This document shows positions 39,663 through 64,000 of a stretch of DNA of 64,000 bases, piece by piece. Under the pieces are notes generated by a model. It was not told where the DNA came from, made no database searches, and saw only the letters and a list, made by a program, of their open reading frames with translations. This stretch comes from Eukaryota sp. GEM-RC1 (lineage: Eukaryota): assembly GCA_040285855.1 (NCBI GenBank), contig JAUFOQ010000004.1, positions 2,728,001 through 2,792,000 on the forward strand, in the 5' to 3' direction. A program made the position numbers and the translations under genes. Every line of letters starts with the position of its first letter. The first letter of the stretch is position 1.

Positions 39663-39903
39663 CTTTGGTTGCATATTCTGTGATTTTCTTTTCAAATGGA
39701 TAATCTCACTTATCCACACCCGATCCACATCGAACTTTTTTTCCACTAAATGTCACTCCCGGTGACATCGTACATCTGCAGTTAACGACTGCACGTTCTT
39801 TCTTATCATATCTGACTGTTTTCAATACCATAAACCTCGTTTTCACATCAATGTCTTTTTGCTGATAGATAAAATCCCATTTTCGTACCCATAGCTTGAC
39901 TTT

Positions 39904-41242: not shown

Positions 41243-41725
41243 TGGGTTCAGAAACTTGCAGGCCAATCTTATAAGTTTCCAACATGGAGAATTTGTGGAG
41301 TTCCCAAATAGGTAGGAAATGGCGAGAAGTGCAAAGCAGAGCATTTACAGAACAATAAAGATGACGCGTATGTCTGTTTGGCTGGAATTGTGATGTCTTG
41401 ATGTTGTCAGTGAAATAATTGTCAACGAAGATACGCAGAAGATACACTAGTTGTTTATTATACAAGAAAGAGAATCAAAGACGAAGGAGTAACAATGTCT
41501 ACGAGGAGATATTGGCATTTGACATTTGTATTGGCTATACGTCGTCAGCAAATGTCACTAGCATTCGTTTTGGGGAGTCACAGAGCTCTAAAAGAACGAG
41601 AAGTACCAGAGTGTGGCTTCGTTGTGGATATGAGTTTGGATGATGAAAATGTGGATGTGGATGTGGATTTTATTCACACTGAAAGCAAAACACTTGTGAA
41701 TTCACTTTTTGACGCATAAATTCTT

Positions 41726-42559
41726 ATGAACACCACTGATTCACCACCAGAGCTATCTCGTCAACCTTTCGAAAACTCGTTATCTTTCTCCGTCGATTTG
41801 AGATACTACTTCTATAAAGGAGGTGGAGAGTTTCTATCAGCAATCACTCCTCTATATTACACGTCTTTGCAGCAAATTACCACAGATACTGTTGCCCGTG
41901 TCTTACTTGAACATTACAGGACAACAGTGACTGAAGGTAACCTTCCACTACACCCTGACGCAGTTCTTCAAGTCTCGTTCAAAAGTGGAGGTCAGTACAG
42001 GGTAGTAAAATCCGACACGCTTCAACAATGGATACAGATACAATCTGATCAAGAAAGAGAGTTCGCCTTTTCAGCCAAGGTGAATCCACGCAATATCAAC
42101 AAGGCTCACCATGATCAAAATAATGCCAGCGTCCAAGCAACTCAGAGACGGTCCATTACCGTTGATGAGTTGAAAGCTCAAAATCCTGGCTTGTTGGCAG
42201 TAGAATCTGCATGGTCCACTTGGGCCCATATGTACGGTACCGGTACTGCTGAAGTATCTGTCTTTCCTGCTGAATTGGTGAGGTTCTTTTCCACCGTTGC
42301 TCCTGACTCCAACATTCACGATGACAGCTTATCAAACGAAGTAGTTCAGTTTATGTCCAGAAAGCTCCTGGAAATGGACACTCAATTGGAGAGAGTGGTT
42401 CATTCGCTTAGAGATCAGTTATTCCGAGAAGTCCACTCTTATATTGACGTCAAAAGAAAACGTCCATCATCTGTTGCACTTTTGGGCCCAGGACCTTCAA
42501 GAAATTTTGATGAGATTGAAGGTGCAGATGATCCCCATGCTCTTAACTTAAACTCTTAA
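41726..42559 (+). CDS. Partner family member 3, intact 277 aa
   Basis: ATG-initiated uninterrupted ORF converging on the transposase, with AATAAA motifs in the 40-bp gap. Confidence 0.8.
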   Translation: MNTTDSPPELSRQPFENSLSFSVDLRYYFYKGGGEFLSAITPLYYTSLQQITTDTVARVLLEHYRTTVTEGNLPLHPDAVLQVSFKSGGQYRVVKSDTLQQWIQIQSDQEREFAFSAKVNPRNINKAHHDQNNASVQATQRRSITVDELKAQNPGLLAVESAWSTWAHMYGTGTAEVSVFPAELVRFFSTVAPDSNIHDDSLSNEVVQFMSRKLLEMDTQLERVVHSLRDQLFREVHSYIDVKRKRPSSVALLGPGPSRNFDEIEGADDPHALNLNS

Positions 42560-42598
42560 AAGTAGTATTGATTATTTAATAAAAGCAATTAATAAAAC

Positions 42599-43695
42599 CT
42601 ATTCAACAAATTTTAACAAGCGTTGTACTCGTTTTCCTGATAAATATGGTGAGCTGTAATATTTGCCTTGAAACCAACCAGAATGTTCAAACATAGCTGA
42701 GCAGTTGTAAGTCATCTGAGTAAGAATGGTTTGCAATTTTTGGAATGTTGGTACGTTTGGATGTAAATGCGAGAAATCTCTAACACGGCAGCGGAATTGA
42801 CGAAAAAACTGTTCTATTGGATTAGATTCAGGAGAATATGGTGGGAGTATCCAATACAGCGCCCCTGTTTTTCTAATCCCCTCAATAAGATCCGGGGAAA
42901 TATGAAACTTGCATCCATCTAGGACAAGAATACTTCTTCTACCACCAAAAGTAGAAATGAGACGGGAAGTAATCATATCTTGTAGAAACTGTACAAAACC
43001 ATGCCTATTGAAATGACCTTCTTGAATAACATGTGCAACATAGCCGTTTACATCGATAGCTACAATGAGAGAAATTTGGGCTTCTCTTACAGGAACAGCT
43101 GGTACCACAACAGGAGATCCTACAGGAGATCTACCGTGGCTTCTTTGAAAATGTTCCGAACGGAAAGAGAGTTCGTCAATGAACAGGAGTTGTTCCTGGT
43201 AAATCACACCAATATTCCGTCTCAGACTAGACTCAAAGGCCATTATTAGTCTAGCTTTGGCCTTTCGTAAAACAGTTGTTATTGTTTTTCGTGTGTACTT
43301 GTACTTCACGAATATTTTATGGATAGACGAAGTACAAATGCTACGTCTGTCAAATGAAATACATACGAGACTTTTGACTTCCCGCAAAAGAGCAAGGGAT
43401 CCTGCTCAACAAGATTGAGTACATAAGATTCGATTGTTCCAGGTAAAGGGTGAGAAACAGAGGATGAGGGTGAAACCGCTACTTCGTCTTGAGCACTGTC
43501 GAGTTTCTTAAAGTATATACCAGTCCATCGACTGAGAGTCGATTGGTGGCAATGAAAGAATTTGCTCACAGACTGTTGAGTTTCACCGAGAAACAGATGA
43601 GTATATACAGCCCTGACTTTGGTATCCTCAGAGGCAGTGGTCCGGAGGAGTCTCAAGTCAACTCCAGTGAGAAGAATGTCGAAGGAAAAGGGCAT
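42599..43695 (-). pseudogene. IS630/Tc1-mariner-like DDE transposase, one frameshift at ~43387
   Basis: MPFSFDILL...ASEDTKVRA...QSTLSRW, then LLFIDE, LVLDG..FH and LPPYSPESNPIE. Catalytic residues are present. Confidence 0.88.
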
Positions 43696-43846
43696 GAAGT
43701 TGTTTATTGTTAGATGGTGGTGATAAAAAAAAACGAAAGTGAAATTATGCCACCAAAACGCACACCACAAACAGTTGGTGGTAAAATTTTTCTCACCAGC
43801 CACATGCACATCTTTCACCAACCCAAATTTCCTTGGTTATCCATCA

Positions 43847-43996
43847 ATGGGACTTACTTTTGAGATGCTATTACAAGGAGTTGACTTAAAACAACTCAGT
43901 CGACGTCCATCTGAAGATACGAAGACCAGGCCCGTCTACACTCACCTCATCTTAGGTGAAAGCCAAGATGCAGTTGCGAGATGTATAAAGGTCTGA
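43847..43996 (+). CDS. 49-aa mini-ORF homologous to the transposase N-terminus
   Basis: MGLTFEMLLQGVDLKQLSRRPSEDTKTRPVYTHLILGESQDAVARCIKV*. Confidence 0.55.
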   Translation: MGLTFEMLLQGVDLKQLSRRPSEDTKTRPVYTHLILGESQDAVARCIKV

Positions 43997-45090: not shown

Positions 45091-47631
45091 TATAGATGGG
45101 AGCCGGCTCAAATTTTGCTCACGGCTCAGCTGCAGGTACTAGTTAGCCGGCTATGGCTTCCAACATAGTTTAGCCGGCTCAAGCCGGCTTTAGCCGGCTC
45201 AGCCGCAATGAGTTTGATGTAGATTTATTGTTTAACTGTTTTGTCAAAGCATATGCTTTCAGTGTCTTCTCTTTGATAGATTTGTTTTATGTGGTTCATT
45301 ATTGTTATACATAAATTCTACCCTATTCTTCAATTATCGCTACTCTACTCATCGTCTTTCTGATCTTCTTCGTTCAAAAGCCAGCACCGCAAACACATTA
45401 ATGCAGTTACCGTGGTGTCATCTAACCGGGAACGCTTCTTAGTTATTACGTTACCAGTTTGTGAAAACAATCGTTCACTACTAACGGAGGTCGCTTGAAC
45501 AGCTAACATATCCCTTGCAAATTTGCTCATCAGAGGAAAGTTTTCAGAGTTTACTCTCCACCAATCTAAGGGATTGTCATTCTCGGCCGAAAACATAGAA
45601 AGATACGTATCTAACTCCTTTTCAACTGATAGATCCTCAGAGTCAGAACGTTCATCTGTGGTACTGTTCTGGGACACAGATTCTTTGATGATCTTAAGCT
45701 TAGCTCTGAAGGATTTGGTCTTCTTTCTCACTTCTCTTCCTCCATTTTCACTGCTATACTCCTCCTGAAGGCGTGTTAATAGCAGATGTCTAACTTCCTG
45801 CAAGTTCACATGCGTTGGCCACATTAAAGGACTTAACTTGATAGACGGATCCATCACAGTTGCAATCTTGGTCGTGTCATTCAGTACATTGGCATCGTAC
45901 TTAGCAATGATTTTCTTCATAAAGATGCTACAAAAACCGGTTACTTTGTTTGGATATACCTCACTCAATTCCTGCATCTTTTTGTGCAGGTCTGACTTCC
46001 GGCGAATATTCTCCAATTCTGCCAAATTGCTGTTTAGTACTCCTTGGCCAAATTTGGCAATTTCAACATCTAGCACTTCTTTTATGGTTTCCCAATACAG
46101 AATTGTATGGGAAATTGTCACGTCAGATGCAGATGAAAGATCGGTTGTGATATCATAGAATGGTTTCAACAGTTTCAACAGCTTTGACAATGTTACTGTT
46201 TCAAAGTCAGATAATATTAGTTCAGTAATTTGCTCATTTTGTAAGAAGTAATTAATGATAGCCAACTGGTCGTGATACGTTTTTAGCATGAGATATGTAC
46301 TATTCCAGCGAGTAGGAACGTCAGAGGGAATTCTTTGAAATTTTTGCCTGTGTCTTTGGCGCAAGTTTTGAGCTTTTCATTCAATGAACTGGACATATGG
46401 GTTTTAGACGTCAATTTTTGAATCTTAAGTATACTGGCTTGTATAAAGGGCAATCCATTCTGGACCATGATGTTTAAAACATGAGCAAAGCATCGCTGAT
46501 TTTCAGACCTTTCGTTCAGTAAATCAACTGCATTCACAATGTTCCCAGCATTGTCAGTTGTCCATGATTGTGTCTTGGTTTGAAGCCCATAATCAGCAAT
46601 AATGGTGTTCAGTTTCGCTGAAATCATTTCTGCGGTATGCGGAAAAGGCAAGTAAGAGATATCGAGAGTGCATGTAAGTAGCTCATATGCGTCATTAATG
46701 TAGTGGCCTACGACAGAAATATAGGGTGTCCCATTATTTGAAGTCCACAAATCGGACGTAAGAGACATCTTCGAAGTGTTAAGTGCCAGCGTTTCTTGAA
46801 GCAATAACTTTTTTTGTGCGAATAAATTCAATATCGTATCCGTAATCGTTTTTCTGCACGGTAGACTCACAGACGGTTCGTAAAACTGAAGGATCTTCAA
46901 GAGAGTTGGAGATTCAATGTACGACAATGGATGTTGATCAGCAAGAATATGATCAACAATGAGAGGAATTACTCCACTTGGATCTTTTTTGAAGGAGCGT
47001 TCTGTTGGCTGAAGATATTCAGTTATTTGTCGACTCTTTTTAAGGGGAGGAACTTCAGATTCATAGAGCTTATTATGGTGCTTTCTCACATGAGAACGCA
47101 AGTTACCTGTGGCTGTCGATGACTTGTAGCGCTTAGAGACACAAAATTTACATTCGATGGTTTCAGTACGCACTTCTATATCACCATTTGGGAGTTTCTT
47201 GGCCGCCTGTTGGAAGAAAGGAGCAATATCTTTGGGAAGAGGCTTGAGGAGTTCTAAGGAAACTATGTCGTTGGAAGAGTTGCTTTGAGATACTTCTATA
47301 GGTTCTTCATTGTCAGAGACCAAAGTAATGTCCATTGCAAATTGATGTGAAGAATGTAAACTGCTGATTATTGTGCTAATGTTGATAAAGATTATTTTTA
47401 TAGAAATTCTTTAGTTTTAATATTTAATGTCCTGCAATGTTATGTTTGTATCAATTCATGAACGAATTATAAATATTTCAGCTGTCAAAAATGAAATTTC
47501 AATAATCGGCTTGAGCCGGCTAAAAGTTATTTGAGCCAGCCGGCTTGCAGCTGGAAATATTTCAATTTGGGACAGCCGGCTGGCTCGGCTAGCCAGCTGA
47601 GCCGGCTAAATTTAGCCGGCTCCCATCTCTA
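45091..47631 (-). mobile_element. Ac-like hAT transposon inserted in the Pif1 gene
   Basis: TIR TATAGATGGGAGCCGGCT / AGCCGGCTCCCATCTCTA, 8-bp TSD CAAAATAT, AGCCGGCT subterminal repeats. Confidence 0.93.
45345..47335 (-). pseudogene. hAT (Ac-like) transposase with BED finger, one frameshift
   Basis: CKFC...NLRSHVRKHH, LTSDLWTS, TTDNAGN, RCFAHVLN, DVPTRWNST, PLDWW...FP, QATSVSSERLFS. Confidence 0.92.
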
Positions 47632-50342
47632 CAAAATATTAAAGTACTTGTCCCTATCATTCAAATGAAAACTCAAAATTTTGGCCATTATTAAATTTAA
47701 ATCTTTTAACAACTGACGTTTCAAACTCATATGTGATTGACAGTCTGATGTTGTATCACTTTGGTTCCAGTGCAGTGGTACAATATTGTGGACAATTGTG
47801 AGAACCTTTGTTTCTGTCTGCATTGCAATACTATGAGTATTGTTCAAGTTGTTTTCAAAATCTGTCTGAAGACCAAGAGAATTTGGTAATCTGTTGACAG
47901 ATTCAGTGACCACATGTTGTGCACTATTTCTTGATAATTTCAAACTAGGTAAATTCAAATTGGGTTTGAGAGTATTTCGAGACAATAGATTTGGTCTCAA
48001 TTTAGGCAAAGTAGTGACTGTTGTTTTTTTCAGTTTTGGCACAGGTTTGTTAAAAATTAAATCAGAATTGATGGCACTTACACTTTGATTATTGAGACAC
48101 TCATCGTCATCATTCACAACAAAATCATTCATACTAGACGACGCATCGTCATCATCATCAGTTTCATCATCTCCACTATCACTTCCAGAGACAACAACTT
48201 CATTATCGAATAATTCTAAAACTGAATCAGAAGTGGTATTCAAATTTTGAATTTTTGGAACATCTTCCACCAAATCTTCCTCAATTTCTTCATTGACTGG
48301 ATCAACAACATCAACAGTTTCCATACTTTCACCAACAATAGAAATAATATTGGACGAAAATTCATCAAAAGTTTTCAACACAGAAGGCCAATTTCTAACA
48401 ATTCTTTCATCTTCTAATGGCAAAGGATAAAGAGGTTTAGTAACCGGTCGACAGGGGTGAAAAGTGGAATAATACCACTGATAAAGATCAATTCTTGGTT
48501 TGGGAAATCTAGAAGAAATATCTAAAATTTTAATTGAGTTCCAGTTCTTCACCCTACTCAATGTAACGTACAATTGGGCATATTCCCAAAAATTTAATGA
48601 AACTTCAATTCCTTCAATTGTTAGTCCCTGAGATCTATGGACTGTTATTGCCCAACAAGGACGAAGAGGATATTGCAATCGGGAAGCTATAATTACAGGC
48701 TTTTTCTTCTCATTCAACACCTCAATTTCAAATTTAGTCGGAATAATTTTGATTGGTTCTTCGTCCCTCCCGAATCTTACATTAATGAAATGTGAAGTCT
48801 CTGAAAAATCAATAATTTTGCCTTTTGACCCATTTACTAGGCCCAGATCTGGTTTGTTTTGGGTAAACATTACCAAACCCCCGACGACACAGTGAAATTT
48901 TTGTTCGGCAAAATCGTCCAGCCTACTTGATAATTTTTTTAAATTTAAACCAACAGCCTTTTCCATTTGTTCCTCATTAGGCTTACCAAATGCCCAACTT
49001 TTACCAATTTCTGATTTAATTAAGGTTTCATTGAACTTATCGAGGGAATGAAATTCAACATTTTCATTGCCTTGTTCACATAATATATCAAATTGCTTTA
49101 AATTTTCGTCGGCGACATCCTTGTTTCTAGCAAATAATTTGGTTGGACTTTCAATATTTTTGGCTAGTGACTTATGTTTCAATAAAATATGTTTCATATA
49201 GTCATCAAAAAGTCCGAGACGTATTTCATTCAAAAAATTATAAAAATTGACATCACTTTGTTGTCGGATACTTCCAGATAATTCAATAAAATTTAAATTC
49301 AAGTCCTTCCAAGACTGTGATGAAAACGTAAAGTCTGAAAGTTGAAGAACAGTACGTGTGGTTGAATCAGACTTTACAATTGGTGCAAGTTGCAAAAAAT
49401 CACCATAAATTACCACTTGAAGTCCACCAAATGGTAACTGAGACTTCAGTAAATCTTTAAATATATCTGATGCTCTGTTGAATAATTCAGCAGTCAACAT
49501 TGAAATTTCATCAATTACCAGCATTGAATTTCTGGCAGTAATAGATCTTAAAATAGATTTAACACTCGAAGGCATAGAGCGAATGACATCAGATATTGGT
49601 TTTTCATTACGGATAAAATTATAACCAAAGAGAGAGTGTAGTGTTTGACCACCAAAGACAGTTGAAGCAACACCAGTAGTAGCAGTAAAAAAGACATGGC
49701 CACCTGGTCTCATTATCTTGGAACCCGCATTAAACCACCACTGTTTAAGACAGTACAGTAGGTAAGACTTGCCCGATCCGGCACCACCAGTAATGAAGAA
49801 ATTTCGACGCTTAGAAGGTCTAGCATGAGTAATAGCTTGGAAGACGTGAGCCTGTTCGTCTGTAAGTGTGTTGATAATGGACATTGAGTGTGTGAAGTGG
49901 TGATGTTTAAGATGCAGATTGTGCAGGGAAACTTTCCTTTCATTATAATTTATATATCTACCTCAACTGTATGGAATATGCTGGTTCTTAGCTGATTCTT
50001 AGCAGCTTATTCTATCATCATCAGCTTTCTATCGTCCCATTTGTCAAATTACATGTCTTTGTAAAACGTGATGTTGGTGTTGGGATCGATCTTGATGAAA
50101 TAGAGCAATGTATCGTGTCCGTGGACTACTTTCGAGCACTTCAACACATATCCGAGTCTTTTAAAGTCACCCCCTTGATCTTACAAATCAAACATGAGAT
50201 CTCTCTCCTAGCACTCGTTGATGCCATTCTATCTGAAGACAAGGTACCTTCTGCTTCTGTTTCACTAAATCCAAGGTAATTCCTCATCCTCCCTCCACTG
50301 CTGATGTTCCTCGTAGAAGTAGGACACCCCGATTTGTGTTCT

Positions 50343-51146
50343 CTATATGTCGAATGTAATCTCCTTATTGCTATTTGTTATAAAATACAACTGTTCTTTA
50401 TACTTAAGCAATGAATCAATGAAACTCACAAACTCCTTGTCACAATCTGCATCACATTCACAAATCTCATTCACATCAAACAAGTTGAACAACGAAAACA
50501 CCCTTTTAACAACAACGGACATTTCAATAAACTCCTCATCTTGACTGTTCTCACACATAAGAATTAGATCTGTCAATGGTTCAGAACATCCTGTAAACTG
50601 TTGGAATACTTCAGTAAGTAACAATTCCCTACATTCATCACCATTCAAGGATAGTACCAAAACTGTCAATACTTTAACTAGACACTGCCGATCACTAATA
50701 CTCCAAAGAAATTCGGAAATATCATTGAGAAACAATATTCTTGCACACTTTGTGATCAACAACGTGTTATACATTGCTTGTAAAGAATTTGCAGGTACAA
50801 ATAACAGGTCAGAAAAACAATTTAGCATTCCCTCAATATCTACACTACTACAACAACAACAAACAATATTGAATACCACGTTCCACAATGGAATCGACGG
50901 CATTGTCTTACATTTCGCTAGTATATGTGAGCAGATTGAAAGTAAAGGAGATAAAGAAGTTAAGTCATCTTCAGGATTTGGATGAAAGCTCATACGATGT
51001 ATGTGAGACAAAAGTGATGTCAATTTGTCAAGAGAGTTAAGTTCTCCTATAGCCATGCATTTGATACATCCACATGCTTGTATCTGTTGAATGAGAGATG
51101 TTTCAAAGAATGTTGCCAAACAATCTTGTAAGATATTGTTGGTCAT
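50343..51146 (-). CDS. Hypothetical protein
   Basis: 267-codon ORF in AT-rich DNA with no recognisable motif. Confidence 0.45.
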   Translation of the reverse strand: MTNNILQDCLATFFETSLIQQIQACGCIKCMAIGELNSLDKLTSLLSHIHRMSFHPNPEDDLTSLSPLLSICSHILAKCKTMPSIPLWNVVFNIVCCCCSSVDIEGMLNCFSDLLFVPANSLQAMYNTLLITKCARILFLNDISEFLWSISDRQCLVKVLTVLVLSLNGDECRELLLTEVFQQFTGCSEPLTDLILMCENSQDEEFIEMSVVVKRVFSLFNLFDVNEICECDADCDKEFVSFIDSLLKYKEQLYFITNSNKEITFDI

Positions 51147-51188
51147 TGAATTGATAGTGAAGGAAAATATTTTTCCGGCAAAAATCCA

Positions 51189-51716
51189 ATGTCAGTTGTA
51201 TGTCTTTATTCACTCTCATTTCAGTCTTCTGATGATGCTACGTCCATGTCTGTCACTTACAACAAGAAACTACGCTCTAATGCTTTCCGAAGAAAGAATA
51301 TGAACAAGCACCAGGATGTCTATAACGTCTTTAGTTATACATCCAAAAAGGTGGATGATAAAAGTGTTCAGCTCGGTCCCAATGGGGACTATATCCTAAT
51401 TTCACGACCTCGTGATAATTCAACTGATGGACTTTCTATAAGTACCAACAATGATGAATTCCTCTCAGACTTGGTACAATCTAAGGAAGACTTTTTTGAG
51501 AATATTGTTCACTTTATTAATTCTAGAACTCAATATTTAGCTTCACAAGGCGCAAAAGTACCAGACATTCCTTCACGTTTTAAGAAAGTGTATGGTATGA
51601 ATGCTGCAGAAAACCAAGATCTTTCTGAGTTTTATTCAATTGCTCCTAATGTTATTCATGAAAGAACTCATATTGTTAAGAAAAGAACAAGAACCTCAAA
51701 GAAGCCAATGTTGTGA
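51189..51716 (+). CDS. Hypothetical protein, possibly continuing by frameshift
   Basis: 175-aa ATG-initiated ORF with no recognisable motif. Confidence 0.4.
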   Translation: MSVVCLYSLSFQSSDDATSMSVTYNKKLRSNAFRRKNMNKHQDVYNVFSYTSKKVDDKSVQLGPNGDYILISRPRDNSTDGLSISTNNDEFLSDLVQSKEDFFENIVHFINSRTQYLASQGAKVPDIPSRFKKVYGMNAAENQDLSEFYSIAPNVIHERTHIVKKRTRTSKKPML

Positions 51717-52115
51717 TCAAAGAAGCCACAACTCCAGAACCTCTCACAAAGTCCTCTCGTAACTCTCCCGTCAGAATCCGCTCCTTCTACTCCTACTGAA
51801 AACAATGAAATTCAATCCTCCCTAGGATCACTTGTTTCCAAGACTTTGGGACAGCAGTGTGGAAAGGAAAAGCCTATCTCAGGCAGCGATAAGAGAAAGA
51901 AGTTAGAGATAAAGAAGTTAAATGTAGGACCTGTTTTGCAGAAACAACTGGCAAGTAGAACAAAATAAAGAAGATGTTGTTTATTGAATGAGATAAGTGT
52001 GCATGGTCTAGTATAGGACTCGAAGATGTGAAGTGAAGCTCTGCACAGTTTCACTTTTCTTTCATACATGAATCCACTGATCTAATTCTAGATATCTGAA
52101 CCTCAACCTAAGAAC

Positions 52116-52581
52116 CAGTTGCTCCCGCCCTTCGTGAAATCACCACCCCAGTAATTGAAAGAGTTCTTCGAATTGCTGGTGATACTGCTCGTGTTTGAAA
52201 AGAATTGATATCATATCTGATCTGAAAAGCTAGCCTCCTCATACACCATATGCGATTTAAAACTCATCTATAGTGCAGTTGCTCCCGCCCTTCGTGAAAT
52301 CACCACCCCAGTAATTGAAAGAGTTCTTCGAATTGCTGGTGATACTGCTCGTGTTTGAAAAGAATTGATATCATATCTGATCTGAAAAGCTAGCCTCCTC
52401 ATACACCATATGCGATTTAAAACTCATCTATAGTGCAGTTGCTCCCGCCCTTCGTGAAATCACCACCCCAGTAATTGAAAGAGTTCTTCGAATTGCTGGT
52501 GATACTGCTCGTGTTTGAAAAGAATTGATATCATATCTGATCTGAAAAGCTAGCCTCCTCATACACCATATGCGATTTAAA
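52116..52581. repeat. 160-bp perfect tandem repeat, ~2.9 copies
   Basis: CAGTTGCTCCCGCCCTTCG starts at 52116, 52276 and 52436. Units look identical. Confidence 0.95.
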
Positions 52582-54931
52582 GTTGTTTTTATACATCATT
52601 ATTGTACTTTTCTTTGTTTAGATATCAATAAAGCATCCCGTTCTTCTTTTGTTTCAAGTCTCTCCCTTGTTAACACGAAATCAACATATACGTTCTAGTT
52701 CAATGCATTGTCTATGTTGTGATACACAAGAGCATTGAAAATAACATTGTCCATGTATTAATTAATGAATGATGTCAAGTAAGTAAGTACAAAAATGTTG
52801 TATTTGAAGTGTAGGAGATATCCGAAGACAGAAAAGATGTCTACTATCTGTAGACAAACAAGACAAGACTCCAAAAATGAATACTGCAATTTCACTTTTC
52901 TTCTCTCTTGACATGCGTATGATCCTCAATCTTTCTAACTATAGACTGCGCAATATGAAAAGAAATTTTTCACTATGGTAAGTGCTTACCTAAAAGCTGA
53001 AGTAGTGAGGTGTGACGCCGTTCCCCAGGTTGTCATCCAACATTTTTACCCAGTTGTCTCCCGCTTGGACAAATGGCAATGAAGGTGTTCGGTTGGCAAT
53101 CTATGGTTCATCCGTCGTTACACTCGCTACTTACTACCTAAGTCATAAGCGTGTGATTCCCTTCACACAAATTACCTACTATGACCATGGCCGTGTTCTA
53201 CTCTTGAAGATTGACCTCTGAGAAGTTTAAGACAATGTCTTGTGACTTGTATTGGCCATACTGTATAACTTTCTTCGTTCCATCCGTTTCATTTCTCTCT
53301 GCTCTTCTTCCACTGAATTGCTTGTGACACAAGCAATAGACGAAAAAGTTGTTGTGTTAGCAAACTAAATGTAGCAGCATCTAAACAACTCAAAGTCACT
53401 TCTATCGTCTTCTCCATATGAAACAAACAGAATGATGACGATATTGCTCACTAACCCATGGACACAACGTCTTCCTCTTGTCGTCTGATTTCGCTTTCCC
53501 CTGCTTGGTCAGTTCATGATGACGATGAGATGAAGATTTGTAACATGGGGTGTTGTGTTCTCCTACCAACTATGATCGATGCAAAGATAATCAGAGCTTC
53601 TTCGCCCTTATCACGTAATGATCAGCCATTACGAATACGAAAAGAGCCAAGCCATTACGAAAACAGATCCTATGTTATCGTCTATGCTTCTTCTGTGATG
53701 ATACTCACTCCTACAGTTATCTCTGATGTATTTGCTGTAATGTGTTCTTTATAGCTGGCTATTCTTTGTTTACAGAAACAATTAAAACATCTTGAACAAT
53801 AGCTTGGTGGTATATCTTCGTTCCTCTGTACAATTCAGAAGTAGAGTAGATCAACAGATGTAAATGGTCTTTATGTATGTCATATACATCACCTCTTCAA
53901 ATCCTGCCACCCCCGCTTCTTTGGTAACAAAATTCGTTGGCGAGAAACAGATAATGTGACTTTTAATATCAATTAAGTTGGGGGAGATATCCAGATCAAT
54001 CACTGTCCTGTTTATAGTGTCAACCAAGACACTCATCATTCGAACATACGAAGGATCACTAAAAAATCAATTCAATGGAACTAGATTAAACTACTGGTCT
54101 AAAATTGTTTTCGACAATACAGATTAATTATTATTTCATAGTTTTGTATGAAGGTATATTAAACAATGTTTGCTCTTCATGACCAATTGTGTGGAAATGT
54201 TGTTTAAAAAAATTGGTGTTTCGGTCAAAGTGTTCTGATATGTATTTAAACAAAGGTATGAATCCAAAAGAATTGTTGCGATTGATCCTAATCAATATGA
54301 TGTATTGTGTTTGTTTAAAATCTAAGGATTGTTGATTCATTTTTATCATTTGTATCATTTGTCAGATTTGTATGAAAGGCAGCTGCTTGATACGATTCCG
54401 TTCTCGAATTTCTCGGTGATAGATTTCAACATTTCTTTATGCTTAATATCCATCAATGACATCATGCTTCTCGACGGTCAAACACAAGCATTGCAGGATC
54501 CCGGTATTGAACATCACATCCATCAGTAAAGAAAAATATTTTTACTTTACTCAATGCTTTACATACCCAGTTGACTCAAGACTCGTCTCAATCTATTACT
54601 GAATCAGTCATTGACATTTCTGAGAATGAAGACCAAGTGGTAGGGTTGTTCTATGTTATATTGGAAAGTATCGGTATCAAAACAACAAACCAATTCTATC
54701 AAGTTCGTTGTTCAGAAATATATTCTTTTCCATTTAATTAATACATACATATTTCATCTTTAATTAGCTTTCGTAACAATACCGTTTTCCGACCAAAACT
54801 TTTTAGGGTTTAAATGTAACAATGACGAAAGTGAACATTATTTAAAAATAAAAAAAAATACATGTGTGTTTTCGAACATTCATTCATTGTACATTGTACT
54901 ACTAGTAGTAGTTTGGTTTATAATCTTCATC

Positions 54932-55747
54932 ATGTCTAAACGAACTTCTTCTCGTTCACGACGTTTCAAATTATCATCTCTTGAAGATCCTTCTTCTGAC
55001 GAAGATTTTCTTACTGATCAGGCGGATCATTGTGAACCTTCATCTATACAAACTTTAACTGATGATGCCAAACGAAAAGAATAGGCCTTTTGGTATCAAG
55101 AGTTCAGTCTATACCTTCTGAAATTCCAGCTGTTCTTCTTTTTACCAACGAGAGGGGAAGTTCTCCAATTTTCGAACTTCCCAGGTGCTGCTCAAGATAT
55201 TCTTAAGAATCCATGGGTTTGTATTGACCAGGGTCCTCTTCTTAAACGACATATACGAACACTTCCCCGACTTCTTCCCTTGGATGTTCCAATTCTTGAA
55301 CACTCAAGGTCCACGTATGAGTATTGTAGATTATCCCCTCAACACTTCCCTAATGCAAACTACCATCTGTTTTTAAAATGTTCTTCTGTTGCTCATAGTG
55401 GTTTAGGTGTCTTTGCTGACGAAACTATTCCACGTGATAAGGTTGTTCTATTTTATATTGGAAAGTATCGGTATCAAAACAACAAACCGATTCACCCTTT
55501 GTTCATTGAGAATGCTTGGATGTTGACTGATGGAACAGTAATTGATGCAGAAGAAGACAATTTCAGTTTTGGTGTTGCCAAGTATGTGAATACCAATGAA
55601 CGTGATTTATTAAATTTAAGAGCGGACGAACATCCTTGTCTAGATCATAATATGGGTGTTCGTTATATTTCTAAAAGACGTATCCGAAAAGGTGAAGAAT
55701 TATTCATTTCTTATGGTGTTGACTTTCCTTTCGTTGTTCAGAAATAA
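54932..55747 (+). CDS. SET-domain protein (lysine methyltransferase-like), N-terminal part interrupted by TAG at 55082
   Basis: SSVAHSGLGVFA..IP....LFYIG, AKYVN, RRIRKGEELFISYG. The basic N-terminus MSKRTSSRSRR is in the same frame. Confidence 0.8.
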
Positions 55748-55772: not shown

Positions 55773-55960
55773 TTTGACCCAATATGAGGCGGAATCCCCT
55801 GCTTGGATTCTATCTCCGTTGAGTCGATATATGGATAGCTTTTTCTCCTCTCCCGTTGATGTCATGCTGCCACCTTGTTGTTTGTATTTGACCCAATATG
55901 AGGCGGAATCCCCTGCTTGGATTCTATCTCCGTTGAGTCGATATATGGATAGCTTTTTCT
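55773..55960 (+). repeat. 74-bp direct repeat (55773-55846, 55887-55960)
   Basis: TTTGACCCAATATGAGGCGG...GGATAGCTTTTTCT occurs twice. Confidence 0.92.
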
Positions 55961-56975
55961 ATGTTGTGAAAACACTTCCATCTCTGCTGTTGTATGTACT
56001 CTACTTCTATTCATGTGTTATCCCTTCCCATCCTCCGTTCCCAAAAGACCTCACCGCCGACGGTGACATTGAGTCCAATCCCGGACCGTTGTCCAAAGAC
56101 TCCCTAGAGTATCTGAATCCTGGCCAATGGATTTTGAACCCCATTGTTGATAAATTCAGAGAAAAAATGCCAAGTTTCACGATACGTTATTCAAACGTCC
56201 CGAAATCTCAGACTCCAAGTGATTGTGGAATTTATGTCATTGCATATGTTCAAAAGTAAGTTCCTGCTAACCAAACGCCAATTGCACCAACTTCCTCCAA
56301 TTTATTTTCAATTGTGTCACAAATTTATTCAGTGTTGTCAAACTGTGAAACCAGAAATATAGAATTTATTCCATCAAATATCAAACATACTCTAACTGAC
56401 TCTGGTTTTTGTGTTCTCGAATACATTGAACTTCTAATGAATTTACATCAATCTGTGGTCATAAGGTGGACTGATGTTAAAGAACTGCTGGGTAATACCA
56501 CTATTGCTGTTCACGAGTCTCGAAGTAAAATTTTGGAACATTTTGAAACTTTTAGTCCTGTTGATTTGTCGCATGTGCCAAAAATGCCAGCCGTCCCTCC
56601 AAAACGTTTGTCCAGTTCAAGTGTTTCAACCGGTGCCACTCCTCAAACTAAAGTTTCTGCCATTAACTCATTGCCACCGACTGTATCAAAACCTGTTCCT
56701 GTGTCTCTCACAGGTTTGCGTCTAGCTAGCACTAAAGCATCCACTGGTTTAAGCACCAAAAGAGTAAACCCAAACTTGCATCACCAAGAGGTTCACCTCT
56801 AATCAAACAAAAGGAAGCCAGAACAACCAACTCCCTTGTATCAACTGGTTGGTACCACTCCTCCAACTAACATTTCTGTGACCACCGTATCTGAACCCGT
56901 TCCTACTTCTCCAACTCCTAAACCATCAATTACAGAACAAGAACCCAATCAATCACAAAAGTTGAGATAAATAGT
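55831..56975 (+). pseudogene. Polyprotein N-terminal region: 2A-like peptide, Ulp1/C48-protease-like remnants, Pro/Thr linker
   Basis: KDLTADGDIESNPGP at 56044-56088, LEYLNPGQWI...IVD, VP..Q.PSDCGIYVIAY, and a second DSGFCVLEYI. One frame throughout, with TAA at 56257 and 56800. Confidence 0.6.
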
Positions 56976-59900
56976 GTGATCACAGATCCTGAACGTTTGA
57001 ATCTTAAAGTCGTTCGAACTAAACAGGAGCCAGAAGTAGACCAAGAGATTGAATCAACTTCAGAAGGTATTCCACAAATTCAGGATACTACTTTTGAAAT
57101 TCAACGTGATCCAGATTTAGACCCAATTGTGTCAATATCTCTTCAGTTTACCCATGATAAATTTGCGAATGAAACTCACCTATTCACCCATAATGTTTCA
57201 GAAATTTCACTTCCTAATTGTGTAGTTCACACGTTTACAACTGAAAAATCAATGTTAACAAATTTCATTACATTTTTAAATCTTAACAAGCCCAGTTTGA
57301 TAATAAGTTATGATCGGCATTTAGATACTTTTCCGTTTTTAGTATCACGATGTAAAAAATTAGAAATTGACATTGATTATACAATTGATGATTACATTTC
57401 TTCTCTTCCATCTTGGTTCCATAGATGGTACAAACCAACGGAAATTGGTCCTTTTTATTCCCTTGACTTGAATTCAGTATTGAAGAAGTTGTATGTCTTT
57501 AGAAGAGGTAGGTTTTTGGAAAACGTGACAACAATTATGATGGACATGAATAATCATTCAAGAACATTTGAAAGTTTTGACAATGAAAATATCTTCCTTA
57601 AGAGAATATTTCACTCTTTAGACAATCCTCTAGTGTCAGATGAAGAAATTAAGGTTAAAACTGATGAACGTCAAAACAAAGCGCCATCTGTGAAACTAAA
57701 ACCCAAGGCTGTTATGGAGATTCGATTGTTAGCAGAATTAACAAAACTTAATGAACTTTGGGAATCTAAAACTTCGAGAGACACTTCGAGAGCCACTTTG
57801 TTATTGAACTCAATCAATAAGTTGTTTCTAATACAATACATTCTCTTTGATCTTCTCGATGAAAAGAAGCAAAAATTAAGAGAACGACCACCAATGAAGA
57901 CAGTGAAGAAACGATTAGATAATGTTGTATCAAAGACTAAAGCCAATTGGATGGAGTCTTTTGCTAAGAGAGCTCATCAGGTCAGAGTTCGTGGTACTCA
58001 TATGTTGAAACATTTTTTCGTTACTAAGTTTCACAACTCTCTAATTTTCGACAAGGTCAAAGAGATACTACCTCCATCTGACTACATTTTCACTGTTAAA
58101 GAAGAAATTGAAACAGACACTGAAGTTTCAGACACTGAACAAACAGAAGTTTTAAGTGAAGAGTTTGTGCCTCAACAATTAGAAGAAGAAACTGAATTGT
58201 CTGTATCTTCAGACCCTCATTTTGTTTGCGATCGTACAATTAGATTTGAAATTTTAGATGAAGACGGTGCAATTTTAGATGAAGACAGTATTGAAAATGA
58301 AACTGGTGAACCTGAACTTGACCTTTTACTAAAATTCAAACTACCAAATTTGGACTACCAGACTGGGGAGCTTACTTTAAGTTGACTCCAATGGGACAAC
58401 TGTTGGCCATGATGTGGATTCCAAATCACCAATTTTTCAACAGTACTGATCATATTAAAACTGTGGAAAACTCTTTAAAAAACATCATTTCTAATGTTAA
58501 AACAACAACTACAAAGAAGGAGTTCGCCCAACACTTCCTATCAAACTACATCCCTCTGTTAGAAACTGCTGGTGAAATGGTTGGTAAAGATAGGATCGTG
58601 TTTCCAAGTGGATTATATTTGTCTAATCCTCTCGGTTACGTTGCAACCGAAATAATTACCAATTATAAGAACAACATGAGTCAACACTTCCATGAGTATG
58701 TTTTTCAAGTCTTTAACTTGGTTACTCAAAAGAAAGAGAGAATGGAAGCTCTTACTGACAAAACTCAAAGACAAGAACTCTGTCAAAGGATTAATGAAGT
58801 TAGAGAATTGATCATTAATGGTGAAATTTCTAAAATTAATTTTGATGACAAGCAAGTTTTTACCAATCCGGAATCTCACTTGAGTATACTCTTCTTCAAT
58901 TATTTGTTTAATTATTTTGAAGGAAAGATGGAGAAAACGATCTATTATGCTGAAAAGAGTGATCCGTTATACTTTTTAAGTCATGCACTGTATTTGAACC
59001 GTCTCATTGAAGACTATTGTCCTGGTGTAAGAGCAAACAATCCTTTCCCATTGTCTAAATCTTTAATTCCAAATCATATCAGGTTCGATACACAATGGTT
59101 CCACAAATTATTTCGTAGTGATCTTCCCTATAACTATAATGAAGTACGGAAACTTATTTGGGATTCAGTATTAAAACCTCAGGCTATTCCAGAGTCATTA
59201 TCCTATGACTTTAAATACACTTCAATTTCGTCAGACGGTTTAAGTTGTAGTTTATTAATGATGCGGAAAGATTTACTTTATGAAAATGGAAATACTCGTG
59301 AAAATGTTACAGCAGTTAATCTTGCTTCAAATGAGCGTTATATTGATTCCTTAAGTGAAGATGAAATTGAAGAACTGAATTTAAAATCTAAGAGAATTGT
59401 TGCTTTTGACCCCAACCAATATGATCTCATGTATTGTGCAAGTTTAAAAACTGATGAGGAAGAGGCGTGCGAGAAATTTGAAGTTGATGAAACAAAACAA
59501 TTGATAAAAAATGGTATGACTAATGCTTGTGTTACAGAAGTTGATCTTGCTTCCAATGAACAATCTATTGATTCGTCAGTTGAGAAGGATGATTCCTCAG
59601 GTGAGAAGGAAATTGAGCCCAAGCCAGTTACCCTAGTTAGAAAAAGAAAGATTGCTCCATTGTCTTCTAAAAAAAGGGGAAGTTTGAAAAAATGAAAAAA
59701 CAATTAAATGATTGGAAGCAAGACACTAACCCACAACCTGTAAAGTGGAAAAATCGTGACAAATGGAAGGTGTTCCGATACACTGCTGGGGAGAGAAAGG
59801 CAGATATTAACAAATCTAGATGGAAACCAAGAAAAAAATCAGCCATCACAGTTCCAAAAGTATTGACAAAGAAAGAAAAAAAGAAAAAAAGCCAAAAAGG

Positions 59901-61157
59901 AACGAAAGAAAAAAAGAAATTTTGAAAAACTTGAAAGGAAACGTGGCAACAGAGGAATAGTCAAATTGACCGAAAGCGAACGATTACAGAGGTACTCAAC
60001 TGAGTTTGAGAAGAGTGTGTGGAATGGTCAAAAGTACTGGATTCCTACAGTTCTGATACTCCAAAAAGAAAATCATGTAAATTGGAAGAATTTTCAAGGT
60101 ACATGGTTAACAATGAAGTTTTCTGTGCATTAATGAGATCAACCACAACTGGAAAAGCAACTGCTGAAGGATTACCTAAAAAGAAAGGACCATCTAAGAA
60201 TCTATCTAAGAAAGGACCATCAAAGAAACTACCTAAGACAGGACCAACTCAACAAATACCTGCTGCAGCTGAAGGTCTTTATGAAGAGAAATTTTTTAGA
60301 CGTAGACGCCTTACCCAATATTCAAGAAAAGAACGAAGTGAACAAAACTTGGTCCACAGATTAGCTCTCCAATATGGTGATCCAGATGAAGTCGTTGTTG
60401 GTTTTGGGGATTGGAATGACACTCAATTCCGAAGAAGAAGGGGTAAGGCAAGTACAGTAAAAGGCGCTACTCTTCGAAACTTACTAAGAAAATTTGGATT
60501 TAAAGTTTTCTTAGTTGATGAATTTATGACAAGCAAATGTTGCTCTGCTTGTGCTGCTGAAAACCAGGAAGGTATCTGTTCCAATCCTGACTTTGTCAAA
60601 GTCATTGATCCTCTGTGGAAGAAGAAGTTACAGAAGGAGGAGAAGAAATTGAAAAAGAAATTATGGAACACAATCAATTAGACAATATTGTGAAACGTAA
60701 TTTTGAAGATGAATGGACCAAACAGTTGCCATTCATGAAAGAAAGATTAAAGAGCAAAAAAGTCTCACCATGGGGCTTAGTTCAGTGTGCTAAATGTCAT
60801 GTCCTCTGGAATAGAGACTTCAACTCTGCTATTAACATTTATAACATTGTAAATGGAATTATCCAAGGTCAAGGTAGACCTGCTGTCCTCGAGAGACCAA
60901 AATCTCAAACAATAACTATCGAGGATGGTGGGATTACAGATCAGGTTCCCAAGAAGAAGAGTGTGAGTAAGTGTCAGTTTTGTCATATGGAAGGCCATAC
61001 AACGGCAAAGTGTCCTCAAAGACCTGTGCCTCCTAAAAGTCCTCGTACATGTACGATATGTAGACAACCAGGACATGATAGAAGAAATTGCCCAAGTAAG
61101 GCCCAGAAAGATGTACCCAAAGACTCACAAGTAGAGAATGAAGAACCGGAATCCTGA
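56976..61157 (+). CDS. Fanzor1 (eukaryotic TnpB-like RNA-guided nuclease) with an N-terminal PolB-exonuclease-like domain and C-terminal CCHC knuckles; broken by homopolymer frameshifts
   Basis: IITNYKNNMSQHF, FPL...IPNHIRFDT, SDGLSCS, RuvC-I IVAFDPN (D 59408), FRYT, Y....FRRRRL..Y....SE, VGFGDW, RuvC-II FLVDEFMTSKCCSAC (E 60520), CAKC..WNRDFNSAINI (D 60816), GRPAVL, CQFCHMEGHTTAKC, CTICRQPGHDRRNC. Confidence 0.88.
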
Positions 61158-61290
61158 ATCTTATAAGTTAGCTCGTCCTAAAAGGCTTGCAAATGAGTGG
61201 CACAATGTGTCAAACTGTGGTGATAGTGCATTATGCATTTGAAATGAAATCCACAGGATTGTCTTTTCTGAGTCGTTTTCTCCAATTCTG
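61158..61290 (+). ncRNA. Candidate Fanzor omega-RNA scaffold / element right end
   Basis: Lies directly 3' of the Fanzor stop. Stems GCTCGT/ATGAGT enclose CCT-AAA-AGG, and CTGTGG/CCACAG enclose GTGCA-TTA-TGCAT. Function is inferred from position. Confidence 0.4.
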
Positions 61291-61769
61291 AATAGAGTAC
61301 TGGTACATCAAATATTAAAACTAACTGCAGATCCCTTTTTCGATAAGTCAGCTGGCATCAGATGTTATGTTCCGTAGTGATGTTGAATTCGAACTCATAG
61401 TCTTCAGTGTTTCTTTGTATATAAACAGGTAACTCTTAGTCTACTGCACTCTTCACAAAAATTAGTCTAAATCAAGGTAATTGTTGATGTTCACATTTAG
61501 TCTGAACAAATACTTTTTTGATGAAAAGTAATATTTCTTCACAACAACATTACTACAGTACTACTCCTAGTGCAGTGTACATACATCTAACAATCAATAT
61601 CCTCAAAGTCCAGATTGCCTATCTGCAAATTCTCACCTAACTTATCCCCATATTCTATGCCAAGAGACAATCAAGCATTATTTAACAGAAGTCACCATAA
61701 CTTTATAAATAGCAAACACAATTCCAGTTTTCCAAAATCAAATATCTCAACCACAAATATGTCATTAAT

Positions 61770-62480
61770 CATCAAGTCGTGTTATGTCTGCATATACGTT
61801 ATGTTGTACGATTAACATATTCTTTGCCCCTGAGTTATCAATTGATTTCTGTCGGGCTTTCAACAAAATTAGCACAGAATTCTTGGCATATCTTTTGCAA
61901 GTCAACCCGAATTTATTGAAAAAACATATTTTTTCTAATGTCAATTTAGGTGGAATAGGGTTTACAAGTTCTAGATACTGGACAAAAGCTGCTTTCATTG
62001 GTGGAGGGAAAAACTTAATATTTGAATTTAGTCAGAGATATCCTGGCAAATTGTGTCTTCTAGAATCGTTAAACAGTTTCTATTTGAATAGTCTTCGTAA
62101 AGAAGTCAGTTAGTCCAGAAGTTTGGTCCACTTGTTTTCCGAGAGAAATTCAGGATCTCCCAGAAAGAAGTTTGGTTTCTTTGAGATTTGCTCTAAAAAA
62201 GCTTCAGCATCATCTTTCGAAACATTTTGAAAGTTTGGATTTTGTTGTTCGCATTAGCTCGGCTAAACAAACTAATCCTACTTTCGCTAATTTTCTGTTA
62301 GATTTACAGGATAGCTCTGCATCAGCTTTCCTCAATCAAATTCCGCAAATTTACGGATTGTTACTAGATGATCATCAGTGGACCACTACAATGCGTTTAA
62401 GATGCTTTTATGGCCTCATAATCTACCCAATGATTGTTACTGCAAATGTGAACAATTGGTAACGTTATCTCATTATTATT
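61770..62480 (+). pseudogene. Non-LTR retrotransposon remnant (CRE/SLACS-like post-RT region)
   Basis: NLGGIGF......AAFIGG, KKLQ..LS, AFL..IP..YGL.L......MRLR, then CYCKC....LSH. Confidence 0.55.
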
Positions 62481-62727
62481 AGGTATTCTGCAAAAATGCC
62501 GATCTCGGGTGTTGGTTTTTCTTACTAAAAATTCGGACGACTAAAGTGGATGTAATTGCATAATGGATGAACTAACTAAAATTCAATACCATCAAATCCA
62601 AATTCCCTATTTCAGCCACTTGCCCACGTACAAACTGTCGTTTTTTGTCGAATACAGTATAATTTATTGTATATTGATTTTGCAGTTCTTCCATTCAAAT
62701 GAAGCCCAAAAGTACATATATCAATAC

Positions 62728-63237
62728 CATACCTAGGCATGACATCATGACGTCATGGCAAATTCGTGTCATGACAACCCGCCATGACGTCATGACGACA
62801 TTGTGTTATTTTGTGAAGTATTATGACATAGCATTAAATACATCTGAATCAAATGAATCTTTTGTCGCCCGACATTTTCCAAACAACATTTCTTCCTTAA
62901 TACAGTTACATTCTGACATTATCTGATATTCCATGTTTATATGCACAATCTTTAGTTTAAATGACATATTGATGATGATGATGTAATTATATCACAACAA
63001 ATGAATCCCAAACTCGTGCTGGTGCAAAAGATTATTCAGTGAGGTCCTTAGCGGTATAAGAACTGAAAATATTGTGGAAATGAAGAAGAAAAAGATTATT
63101 CATACATGTACTAGTAGACTATTGTTGAATAACTATCAATAAATATTGGAAATTGTCATACTGTTATGTCATATTGTCATGTCATGGAGTGTCATGACGT
63201 CATGACAGAATTCAATTTGTTGTCATGCCCAGGCATG
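62728..63237. mobile_element. hAT-type MITE, 510 bp
   Basis: TIR CATACCTAGGCATGACA vs CATGCCTGGGCATGACA (15/17), 8-bp TSD ATCAATAC, GTCATGAC palindromic repeats. Confidence 0.9.
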
Positions 63238-63679
63238 ATCAATACTCACGGCTTCTCAAATACACTCCATTAATAGAACAGTAGGTGAAACAGTTTGAAC
63301 ATAGTTTTTGAGGTCATCTGCATGTACTTTGAGGTACTCTACAACAGAAGACTCAATTCGTGGATAAAATTGTTTTTGAAGAGTACTACTGTACTAATAC
63401 ATGTAATACATGTACCTGCATTCAATGTAGTTTCCATCAATTGATTTCTATCAATCAGACACTGTCTTTTGTACCTGGAAATATGGAGAAGTTCTACTAA
63501 GTAGTAGAGTACATTTCAGCTGTTTCATGTTTCCTACGAATCATGTACTTGAAGAACAGTATACTGGTATCTACACAAAATGATAAACCACAAGCAAATC
63601 GATTTTACAGTTTAATATTTTAGTTCTATAAGTAAAAACAAAACTTGAAGGGGGGAACAGTCACTTAAAATTGTACAGT

Positions 63680-64000
63680 CTAGGGAGTGACGTTGGAACT
63701 TAACCAATCAAGACCAGTAAACAAACCATCACCGTTCAATGCACACGTGGGCTGGATGAACCACGTGTTTCGAAGTGAATCAAGTTCTAATTTGTCTGCC
63801 AGTTCCGATGGAGTCATAGCATTGGGGAGATCTTGTTTCTTTGTTAAGACAGAAAAAACGACATACGTTTGCAAAAATAAGTAAAGTGGCATTTCGAAGA
63901 AGTTCGTCACGCATCATATGGTGCAACTCACAACGGGCACAGCCTTCCACACAGTTGGAATCTCTACATGCTATTCTGCTTCGATCGGCGGAATCAACAA
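63680..64000 (-). CDS. ADP-ribosylation factor (Arf) family GTPase, 3' part, with intron 63839-63866
   Basis: VDSADRSRI...[29 protein letters not shown]...[19 protein letters not shown]. Splicing restores the NKQD G4 motif. Gene runs off the window. Confidence 0.9.

Follow-up and report, generated by a model that had tools for sequence, protein, structure and literature searches.

A Fanzor1 nuclease joined, in one reading frame, to the 3'-5' exonuclease-like domain of a family-B DNA polymerase (PolB) is encoded in damaged form in a 64,000-nucleotide (nt) stretch of the genome of Eukaryota sp. GEM-RC1 (GenBank assembly GCA_040285855.1, contig JAUFOQ010000004.1, positions 2,728,001 to 2,792,000, forward strand), which we call the window and whose own numbering we use throughout. 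The gene occupies nine open frames of the same orientation between 55831 and 61157. The fusion is real, it is repeated, it occurs in two species and it is apparently undescribed. As to its function, we infer, with a probability of about 0.55, that the intact form, with a 2A-like peptide, a PolB proofreading domain and Fanzor1 in one frame, makes an RNA-guided cut and then trims the 3' ends with its tethered exonuclease. The most interesting point to emerge from the sequence comparison is that the exonuclease is degenerate in the window, whereas all of its active-site residues are kept in the second species.

Homology searches, a profile-library search and cluster look-ups yielded 81 proteins, six of which were set aside (three encoded by the window itself and three unrelated, namely two PolBs and one repeat protein). 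The others are at least 70 named sister proteins from GEM-RC1 (15 are listed from one cluster of 18) and five proteins from Eukaryota sp. TZLM3-RCL. Both species are skoliomonad metamonads with Nanopore assemblies that were corrected with Illumina reads and annotated with AUGUSTUS (PMC11316075; here and below, most papers are cited for the parts of their text that were available). The GEM-RC1 sister proteins are paralogues and do not represent independent lineages, and it is the second species that provides the independent witness. Two of its five proteins are full length, P0028 (1473 amino acids, aa) and P0041 (1479 aa), each of them a single unbroken gene model that runs from the 2A-like peptide through a linker and the PolB exonuclease to a complete Fanzor1, with complete sets of DEDDy and RuvC residues, while a third covers the part from ExoIII to the end. 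P0028 and P0041 are about 26-39% identical to the window copy, depending on the segment, and they lack the Ulp1 and zinc-knuckle modules found in the window. Ulp1 and zinc knuckles appear to have been added in the window's lineage, and the exonuclease residues to have been lost there. The window subfamily protein is estimated from overlapping sisters at roughly 2000 aa, against about 1480 aa in the second species.

Within GEM-RC1, 11 of the 70 sister proteins hold 2A, Ulp1 and exonuclease domain in a single chain, 6/70 run from 2A through the Fanzor N-terminus, 6/70 run from the exonuclease through RuvC-I, and 30/70 carry RuvC-I, spread over nine contigs of distinct length, so that the family is multi-copy. 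The closest sisters are 90-95% identical to the window copy and other subfamilies 37-69%. The sequence-only reading, made earlier from the letters of the window, had the exonuclease-like domain and the Fanzor N-terminus (MKTVKK at 57894) in one uninterrupted open reading frame (ORF), and this is borne out: ORF 56922-58385 matches PF03104 (DNA_pol_B_exo1) above the cut-off, and it exhibits the exonuclease-Fanzor join directly, with no gene model involved. The other Pfam matches along the window copy are weak and follow in the order Peptidase_C48, Cas12f1-like TNB and zinc knuckle. On these sequences, the modules almost certainly share one reading frame and the architecture is real. We give almost no credence to a chance mosaic of unrelated decayed insertions, a picture that the transposon debris filling the window and the Fanzor and SET remnants just upstream might invite; the identical module order recurs within single chains of many copies, and in both species, which refutes it for the whole span from 2A to knuckle, and the upstream modules are accordingly not unrelated insertions. 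Three sister proteins (P0039, P0022 and P0019) are subfamily chimeras, with the leader from one subfamily and Ulp1 or exonuclease from another, and in P0019 RuvC-I is joined to RuvC-III, with a single knuckle instead of two. The chimeras P0039 and P0022 suggest exchange between subfamilies, which would fit gene conversion and equally well ordinary recombination.

Alignment of P0028 and P0041 with five ordinary family-B polymerases brings ExoI (FDVET), ExoII (GYNCDKFD) and ExoIII (YCxND) all into register, and P0043 behaves alike. The DEDDy residues (ExoI D-x-E, ExoII D, ExoIII Y-xxx-D) are complete in P0028, P0041 and P0043, that is, in all three P0028-cluster proteins that cover them, and incomplete in the window and its 70 sisters. 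P0027, which belongs to a separate subfamily of the second species, keeps ExoI and ExoII, and the ExoII motif is intact in 4/5 second-species proteins compared with 0/70 GEM-RC1 sisters. Across the four sampled subfamilies of the window's lineage, ExoI reads DFK, EIR, EVK or HVQ; the aspartate of ExoII is either missing or has shifted its place, and the sequence aligned with the ExoIII helix is of the NSINK type. Judged by its residues, the exonuclease is probably active in the second species. The degenerate core is still conserved: subfamilies share 79/151 and 70/151 identities over it, compared with 8/36 and 9/32 over the acidic insert beside it, so about half of its positions are identical, twice the level of the insert. 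An AlphaFold model of sister P0051, built on a shallow alignment, is confident only over the exonuclease core, which Foldseek matches to PolB (E 4e-7); that of P0042, also from a shallow alignment, was uninformative.

The domain could instead be mainly a nucleic-acid-binding or structural appendage that holds DNA ends, the displaced strand or the guide RNA, with catalysis incidental. Loss of the catalytic residues in every sampled subfamily of the window's lineage, in a core that is still 46-56% identical, would agree with this, as would a GPF...YxFxGGRxLxNV segment that is nearly invariant in both species and the report that fusion to the DNA-binding HMG-D helped SpuFz1 while a nuclease fusion hurt it (PMC13434818). 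Given the complete DEDDy sets of the P0028 cluster and the ExoI and ExoII motifs of the separate subfamily P0027, we regard this as unlikely, though to be taken seriously.

The C-terminal part of the chain is a Fanzor1 rather than a Fanzor2 or TnpB, judging from the affinity of its REC and WED regions and its GDW motif. The sequence-only reading had described a co-oriented chain of ORFs with a full Fanzor1 motif set and an intact RuvC triad, and all of these motifs are in place, with the catalytic codons at 59408 (D of DPN), 60520 (E of VDEFMTSKCCSAC, 60514-60552) and 60816 (D of NRD). The glutamate stands six residues before the CxxC finger, EFMTSKC-CSAC fitting the pattern ExxxxxxCxxC (PMC10711439). 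The middle and C-terminal frames match the Fanzor1 structures SpuFz1 (E 2.5e-9 and 7.9e-6), GtFz1 (4e-4) and PpFz1 (1.4e-4), which places the C-terminal part among the Fanzors, and among solved structures only Fanzor1 is reached at E < 0.001. All elements of the 2013 motif D-X(125,275)-[TS][TS]-XX-C4-X(5,50)-RD (Bao and Jurka 2013, PMC3627910) are present, with a D-to-TS spacing of 281 in P0028 and P0041, beyond the 2013 range, and a still longer one in the window owing to insertions. A viral Fanzor1 matches at E 7e-28; it is an intact, stand-alone 612-aa protein on a 198-kb viral contig (L005, 4651-6486), collinear with ours, and its start aligns near MKTVKK. Everything upstream of 57894 is therefore an extension. 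No transposase was noticed among the listed frames of that contig.

Frameshift-aware alignment to sister proteins was used to map the damage in the window copy. About 85-115 residues of the first Ulp1 domain are missing near 56134, and another 155 are missing at 56257-56263, where a TAA marks the join; in P0021 the missing stretch separates two Ulp1 domains. These two large deletions removed both Ulp1 histidines. A point change as the origin of the TAA at 56257 was discarded, since P0021 reveals the deletion join there. The frame changes at least eight times, at about 56760, 56848, 56958, 58325, 59689, 59877, 60010-60070 and 60660, of which the last three are approximate, having been placed from more distant or themselves shifted relatives. 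The change at 56848 is a 4-base gain and that at 56958 a 10-base loss that took three residues of the ExoI strand; these two and the two deletions are not homopolymer-type errors. The window copy is not intact, because of its two deletions, its stop and its frame changes, two of them of non-homopolymer kind, and on this sequence evidence it is very probably dead and only a fossil. The sequence-only reading had seen three junctions (~56958, ~58366 and ~59670), each repaired by adding one base to a homopolymer, and had suggested that the gene may be intact in vivo. Number, place and kind were all wrong (58325 and not 58366, 59689 and not 59670), and the suggestion does not survive the comparison with the sisters.

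Several of the window's breaks do fall within runs of A or T, have counterparts in sister proteins and may be sequencing errors, with a stop at GSLKK in 4/26, as in the window, and the frame left at VTLKK in 10/14, where the window stays open. As a control, 8/18 indels between near-identical repeats fell in runs of at least 4, compared with 8.7% of bases, although three of the pairs overlap and real slippage would bias the count alike. Introns were considered as the cause of the breaks and rejected: at 3/8 tested breaks there is no frame-restoring GT-AG pair of 20-60 nt, and at the remaining ones the pairs would excise residues present in sisters or deviate from the consensus of the intron in the ARF gene of the window (28 nt, GTATGT...TAACAAAG).

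The 2A-like peptide of the window reads DLTADGDIESNPGP (56047-56088). Its D-[VI]-E-x-N-P-G-P core occurs once in the window and in none of 100 shuffled windows, and the canonical motif is present in 12/70 sisters and 2/5 second-species proteins, with a third second-species protein reading NLGP. The nearest upstream methionine is at 55945, giving a hydrophobic leader of 47 aa, and over seven proteins the distance from 2A to that methionine is 27-86 residues; in LINE (long interspersed nuclear element) ORF2 proteins, 2As lie 40-80 aa from the N-terminus (PMC3708506). By analogy, the 2A would release a short leader and would not separate domains. A screen associates peptides of this sort with skipping and with a lower protein output, and many of the 2A-like peptides tested there do not skip, the motif alone not being predictive (PMC13405545).

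In the window the Ulp1 His-Asp-Cys triad is incomplete, with both His regions deleted and the second Cys replaced by Ser, and Peptidase_C48 scores below the cut-off there and above it in 8/8 long sister proteins; the His and Cys motifs are found in 12/70 sisters, and an IDP Asp motif was also seen. Ulp1-type proteases cut after Gly-Gly, and no Gly-Gly site is present in the linkers of the 3/3 proteins checked. Two zinc knuckles do share the frame of RuvC-III in the window, as the sequence-only reading had it, with Pfam scores below the cut-off; P0019 has one knuckle, and P0028, P0041 and P0042 have none.

These results bear on whether the locus encodes an intact virus-like polyprotein from which 2A and Ulp1 cleavage would free a compact Fanzor. 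The canonical 2A, the intact Ulp1 His and Cys motifs of 12 sisters and the A/T-run breaks at GSLKK and VTLKK, which recur as long-read errors would, can be cited for it. We find it very improbable, since the window copy carries real deletions, the 2A lies upstream of all domains, the ExoIII helix is only about 20-30 residues from the Fanzor start, and the only processing signal found is that one N-terminal peptide, a viral-type polyprotein being expected to have several cleavage sites. Self-processing is also unlikely to be needed, because the second species does without Ulp1. The description of the locus as a processed virus-like polyprotein of ~1700 aa was thus too strong, the knuckles likewise being absent from the second species and no viral carrier having appeared in our scans. 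Viral contigs scanned with P0008, an exonuclease alignment and a RuvC-I alignment gave no match, and a RuvC-II alignment gave two loci (of 185 stretches), one of them a stand-alone Fanzor1 and the other a fragment, so none of these scans found a virus with an exonuclease-Fanzor fusion. A metagenome scan returned four loci (of 196 stretches), all ordinary archaeal-type PolBs, the ESM Atlas gave one weak lead (score 0.75, with 39% of its members in the TNB family), and a search with the REC-RuvC-I ORF for longer proteins found 0/1730 candidates, a weak negative as only cluster representatives were covered.

We return to the reading we prefer, RNA-guided cutting followed by trimming. An omega-RNA from the 3' end of the element would guide RuvC to the empty site, as is known of Fanzor1. 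The SpuFz1 cut in the non-target strand falls 16-17 nt away from the target-adjacent motif, TAM (PMC10432273), and because of this position the TAM-side 3' end would be left with a last 16-17 nt that mismatch the filled allele, where the element follows the TAM. The tethered exonuclease would then remove the mismatched tail, and repair synthesis would copy the element back, a restorative form of homing. OMEGA nucleases have been proposed to cut the empty donor site so that the element is restored by gene conversion, and in Fanzor1 the TAM includes the 5' target duplication, the guide being taken from sequence past the element's 3' end (PMC13565253). Proofreading by Pol delta can remove as many as 40 nt from an invading 3' end (PMC10868807), and intron homing is affected by the T4 polymerase exonuclease (PMC2988022). 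A proofreading domain captured from a polymerase and held next to Fanzor would supply such a step. That tail trimming for homing is the job of the exonuclease is, on these analogies, a tentative proposal. In the window's lineage, catalysis would have been lost and the domain kept, likely for binding DNA ends; Ulp1 was likely added as a deSUMOylase acting on host proteins and the CCHC knuckles likely for RNA binding, and the 2A, by analogy with LINE ORF2, would release a short leader and likely lower nuclease output. A fuller version, in which a transposase-free element moves by Fanzor1 cutting, exonuclease tail removal and host recombination, with the 2A throttling the nuclease and the SUMO protease disarming host silencing, seems to us doubtful.

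The exonuclease might act on RNA or other products, trimming the 3' end of the omega-RNA until the guide has its proper length, or degrading the cut target so that it is not re-ligated and rival elements are lost. RNA-trimming enzymes are among those with a DEDD fold, and the CCHC knuckles point to RNA handling. Guides reach 14-15 nt beyond the end of the element and must have a defined 3' end (PMC13565253). We hold this to be improbable, as the sequence and fold matches are solely to DNA-proofreading PolB domains and stand-alone Fanzors mature their guides with no exonuclease domain.

A number of observations weigh against the reading of cutting and trimming. Exonuclease activity is dispensable, the catalytic residues having been lost in all four sampled subfamilies of the window's lineage, which still multiplied. 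In yeast, loss of Pol delta proofreading left the tested single-strand-annealing outcome unchanged (PMC10868807), and the T5 5' exonuclease fused to SpuFz1 lowered editing (PMC13434818). The two structure models have a mean predicted local distance difference test score (pLDDT) of 40 and 35, with low confidence outside the exonuclease core. RuvC-II is found in 0/70 sister proteins, the C-terminal part having had no separate search, and because no retrieved sister protein contains it, these proteins neither show nor exclude an intact copy in the window's lineage. All of the relatives are gene models, whose predicted introns may conceal breaks. For a guide RNA, the predicted folding of 61158-61400 does not surpass that of shuffled sequence (z +1.1; the best among 15 sliding windows had z -0.66), with no Rfam match of note and no match to the L005 flank. 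Searches of the window flanks for element ends gave no more than three inverted matches, all of them AT-rich 12-mers, and neither a direct repeat nor a target duplication, and no transposase family was found in the 68 flanking ORFs of at least 45 aa (49960-55100 and 61150-64000), in agreement with the sequence-only reading, which had seen no cognate transposase next to the gene and had left the carrier element unnamed. Since element ends, target duplication and transposase were not found, it is copy number that argues for mobility; on sequence, this is a dispersed, multi-copy gene family and likely a transposon passenger. Lastly, 14 sister proteins end in the same out-of-frame tail (RGSWRRK) after the Lys-rich A-run. 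Eleven sister proteins end in SLMKSDS, and many copies lose the frame at shared A-rich sites. Sequencing error is the likeliest explanation of such shared frame exits at A-rich sites, and programmed frameshifting may be another.

Table 1. Parts of the Fanzor1 fusion gene and adjoining remnants in the window
Feature	Position	Strand	Basis and remarks
Two leader repeat units, 114-bp spacing	55773..55960	+	74-nt copies, 100%; left limit of detectable similarity to sister elements
2A-like (StopGo) peptide DLTADGDIESNPG/P	56047..56088	+	motif; canonical in 12/70 sisters
Ulp1/C48 domain 1 remnant	56089..56256	+	N-terminal and catalytic-Cys motif (DCG) kept, His/Asp region deleted
Second Ulp1-like remnant	56263..56560	+	Cys-to-Ser (DSG at 56398), front half deleted; tandem Ulp1 domains in P0021
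Pro/Ser/Thr-rich linker	56561..56957	+	frame changes about 56760 and 56848
Family-B DNA polymerase 3'-5' exonuclease-like domain	56958..57870	+	PF03104 E 3e-7; catalytic residues lost, ExoI strand damaged
Fanzor1 (REC, WED, RuvC I-III, C4 zinc finger)	57894..60900	+	homology, alignment; acidic and Lys-rich insertions
Two CCHC zinc knuckles	60972..61091 (60972-61013, 61050-61091)	+	stop codon 61155-61157
Second Fanzor copy remnant (RuvC-I, SKRIVAIDPNQYD)	54242..54330	+	E 1e-8
SET gene remnant, internally deleted	54633..54737	+	similarity to SET gene
SET-domain gene, in-frame TAG at 55082, own stop	54932..55747	+	PF00856 E 1e-8

At its 5' side the window copy may have been cut, because the leader peptide of the sisters is missing (P0039 has three leader units, preceded by a peptide that is absent from the window) and the upstream SET gene ends in a stop of its own. 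Pieces of SET and Fanzor are found side by side in two places, at 54242-54737 and again at the main copy, and the SET gene is a candidate member of the element.

The window as a whole is transposon-rich eukaryotic sequence with an ARF gene. A 30-nt AT-rich hairpin-like motif is shared between 61226-61259, 3' of the Fanzor, and two sites in IS630/Tc1-like regions, 39704-39675 and 28875-28907 (blastn E 0.005 and 0.016, reached by 1 and 10 of 100 shuffles); it may be a start-codon context on the other strand, or chance. Those regions, 26500-29620 and 39560-43900, hold IS630/Tc1-like DDE_3 genes, each with a related ORF on the opposite strand (27974-28651 and 41720-42559). The PIF1 helicase gene at 47629-49962 (minus strand) is intact, encodes a long acidic tail and adjoins a hAT transposase; it was rejected as a Helitron carrier of the Fanzor gene, being 6 kb off and on the opposite strand, with no Rep domain. 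hAT transposases at 37067-39514 (plus) and 45345-47410 (minus) and a Gypsy-type pol at 16342-19556 (plus) are each split by a stop or frame change. A duplication spaced by 6.1 kb, with a third copy (397-12000 and 19819-22348), contains long frames on the minus strand that carry a P-loop-like motif, the one tested having no Pfam match, and a perfect 160-bp tandem repeat of 2.9 copies at 52116-52581 has a weak Not1-domain match.

In the literature searched we found no natural fusion of a Fanzor to an exonuclease, Ulp1 or 2A, so the view of the sequence-only reading that the architecture is undescribed stands to that extent; subscription papers, bioRxiv supplements and Repbase were largely outside the search. 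No such fusion appears in the available parts of Bao and Jurka 2013 (PMC3627910), PMC10711439, PMC10530073, PMC10432273, PMC11423790 and PMC10691335, and the text supplements of PMC10432273 and PMC10530073 contain no match for DNA_pol_B, Peptidase_C48 or exonuclease. Jiang et al. state, in the part available, that Fanzors often hold further domains. The roles of Fanzors for eukaryotic elements are still inferred from bacterial TnpB, and a Fanzor1 that carries its own 3'-5' exonuclease is a built-in test of element function, domain by domain, with two apparently whole proteins (P0028 and P0041) and, in the sister lineage with the dead domain, a natural control. The family brings 2A recoding and accessory Ulp1 domains into the OMEGA nucleases and presents Fanzor1 as a modular scaffold that has more than doubled its usual length. 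If the transposase-free reading were true, P0028 and P0041 would be the first natural Fanzor-exonuclease editors.

Engineered fusions such as TREX2-SpCas9 (PMC13370227) and T5E-SpuFz1 (PMC13434818) likewise tether an exonuclease to an RNA-guided nuclease, although ours is natural, PolB-derived and known from sequence. A C48 accessory module in a mobile-element protein is shared with the Ulp1-bearing transposases of Ginger1 and Mutator (PMC2836005), but here Ulp1 is fused to Fanzor, is N-terminal, single or tandem, and comes with no transposase. The 2As of APE-type LINE ORF2 and L1Tc/Ingi (PMC3708506; PMC13405545) resemble ours in a GDxExNPGP near the N-terminus, a hydrophobic leader and a nuclease downstream, whereas here the 2A precedes Fanzor and there is no reverse transcriptase; the main text of PMC13405545 does not mention Fanzor, TnpB or RuvC. 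With the proofreading domain of family-B polymerases (Pol delta, archaeal PolB; PF03104) the fusion shares the order ExoI-II-III, DEDDy in P0028 and P0041, and Foldseek and phmmer matches, and it differs in having no polymerase domain, an acidic insert after ExoI and, in the window's lineage, lost residues. Finally, with the Fanzor1 proteins of known structure (SpuFz1, PDB 8gkh; GtFz1, 9cer; PpFz1, 9cf0) it has in common the DPN of RuvC-I, GDW, the E six residues before the zinc finger, the C4 finger, NRD and homology over REC and WED, and, like Fanzor1, it is multi-copy in a protist genome; in contrast, it is about 1480 to roughly 2000 aa long, where most Fanzor1 have 600-700 aa (PMC11423790), and it carries an additional N-terminal 2A and PolB exonuclease, with optional Ulp1 domains and CCHC knuckles.

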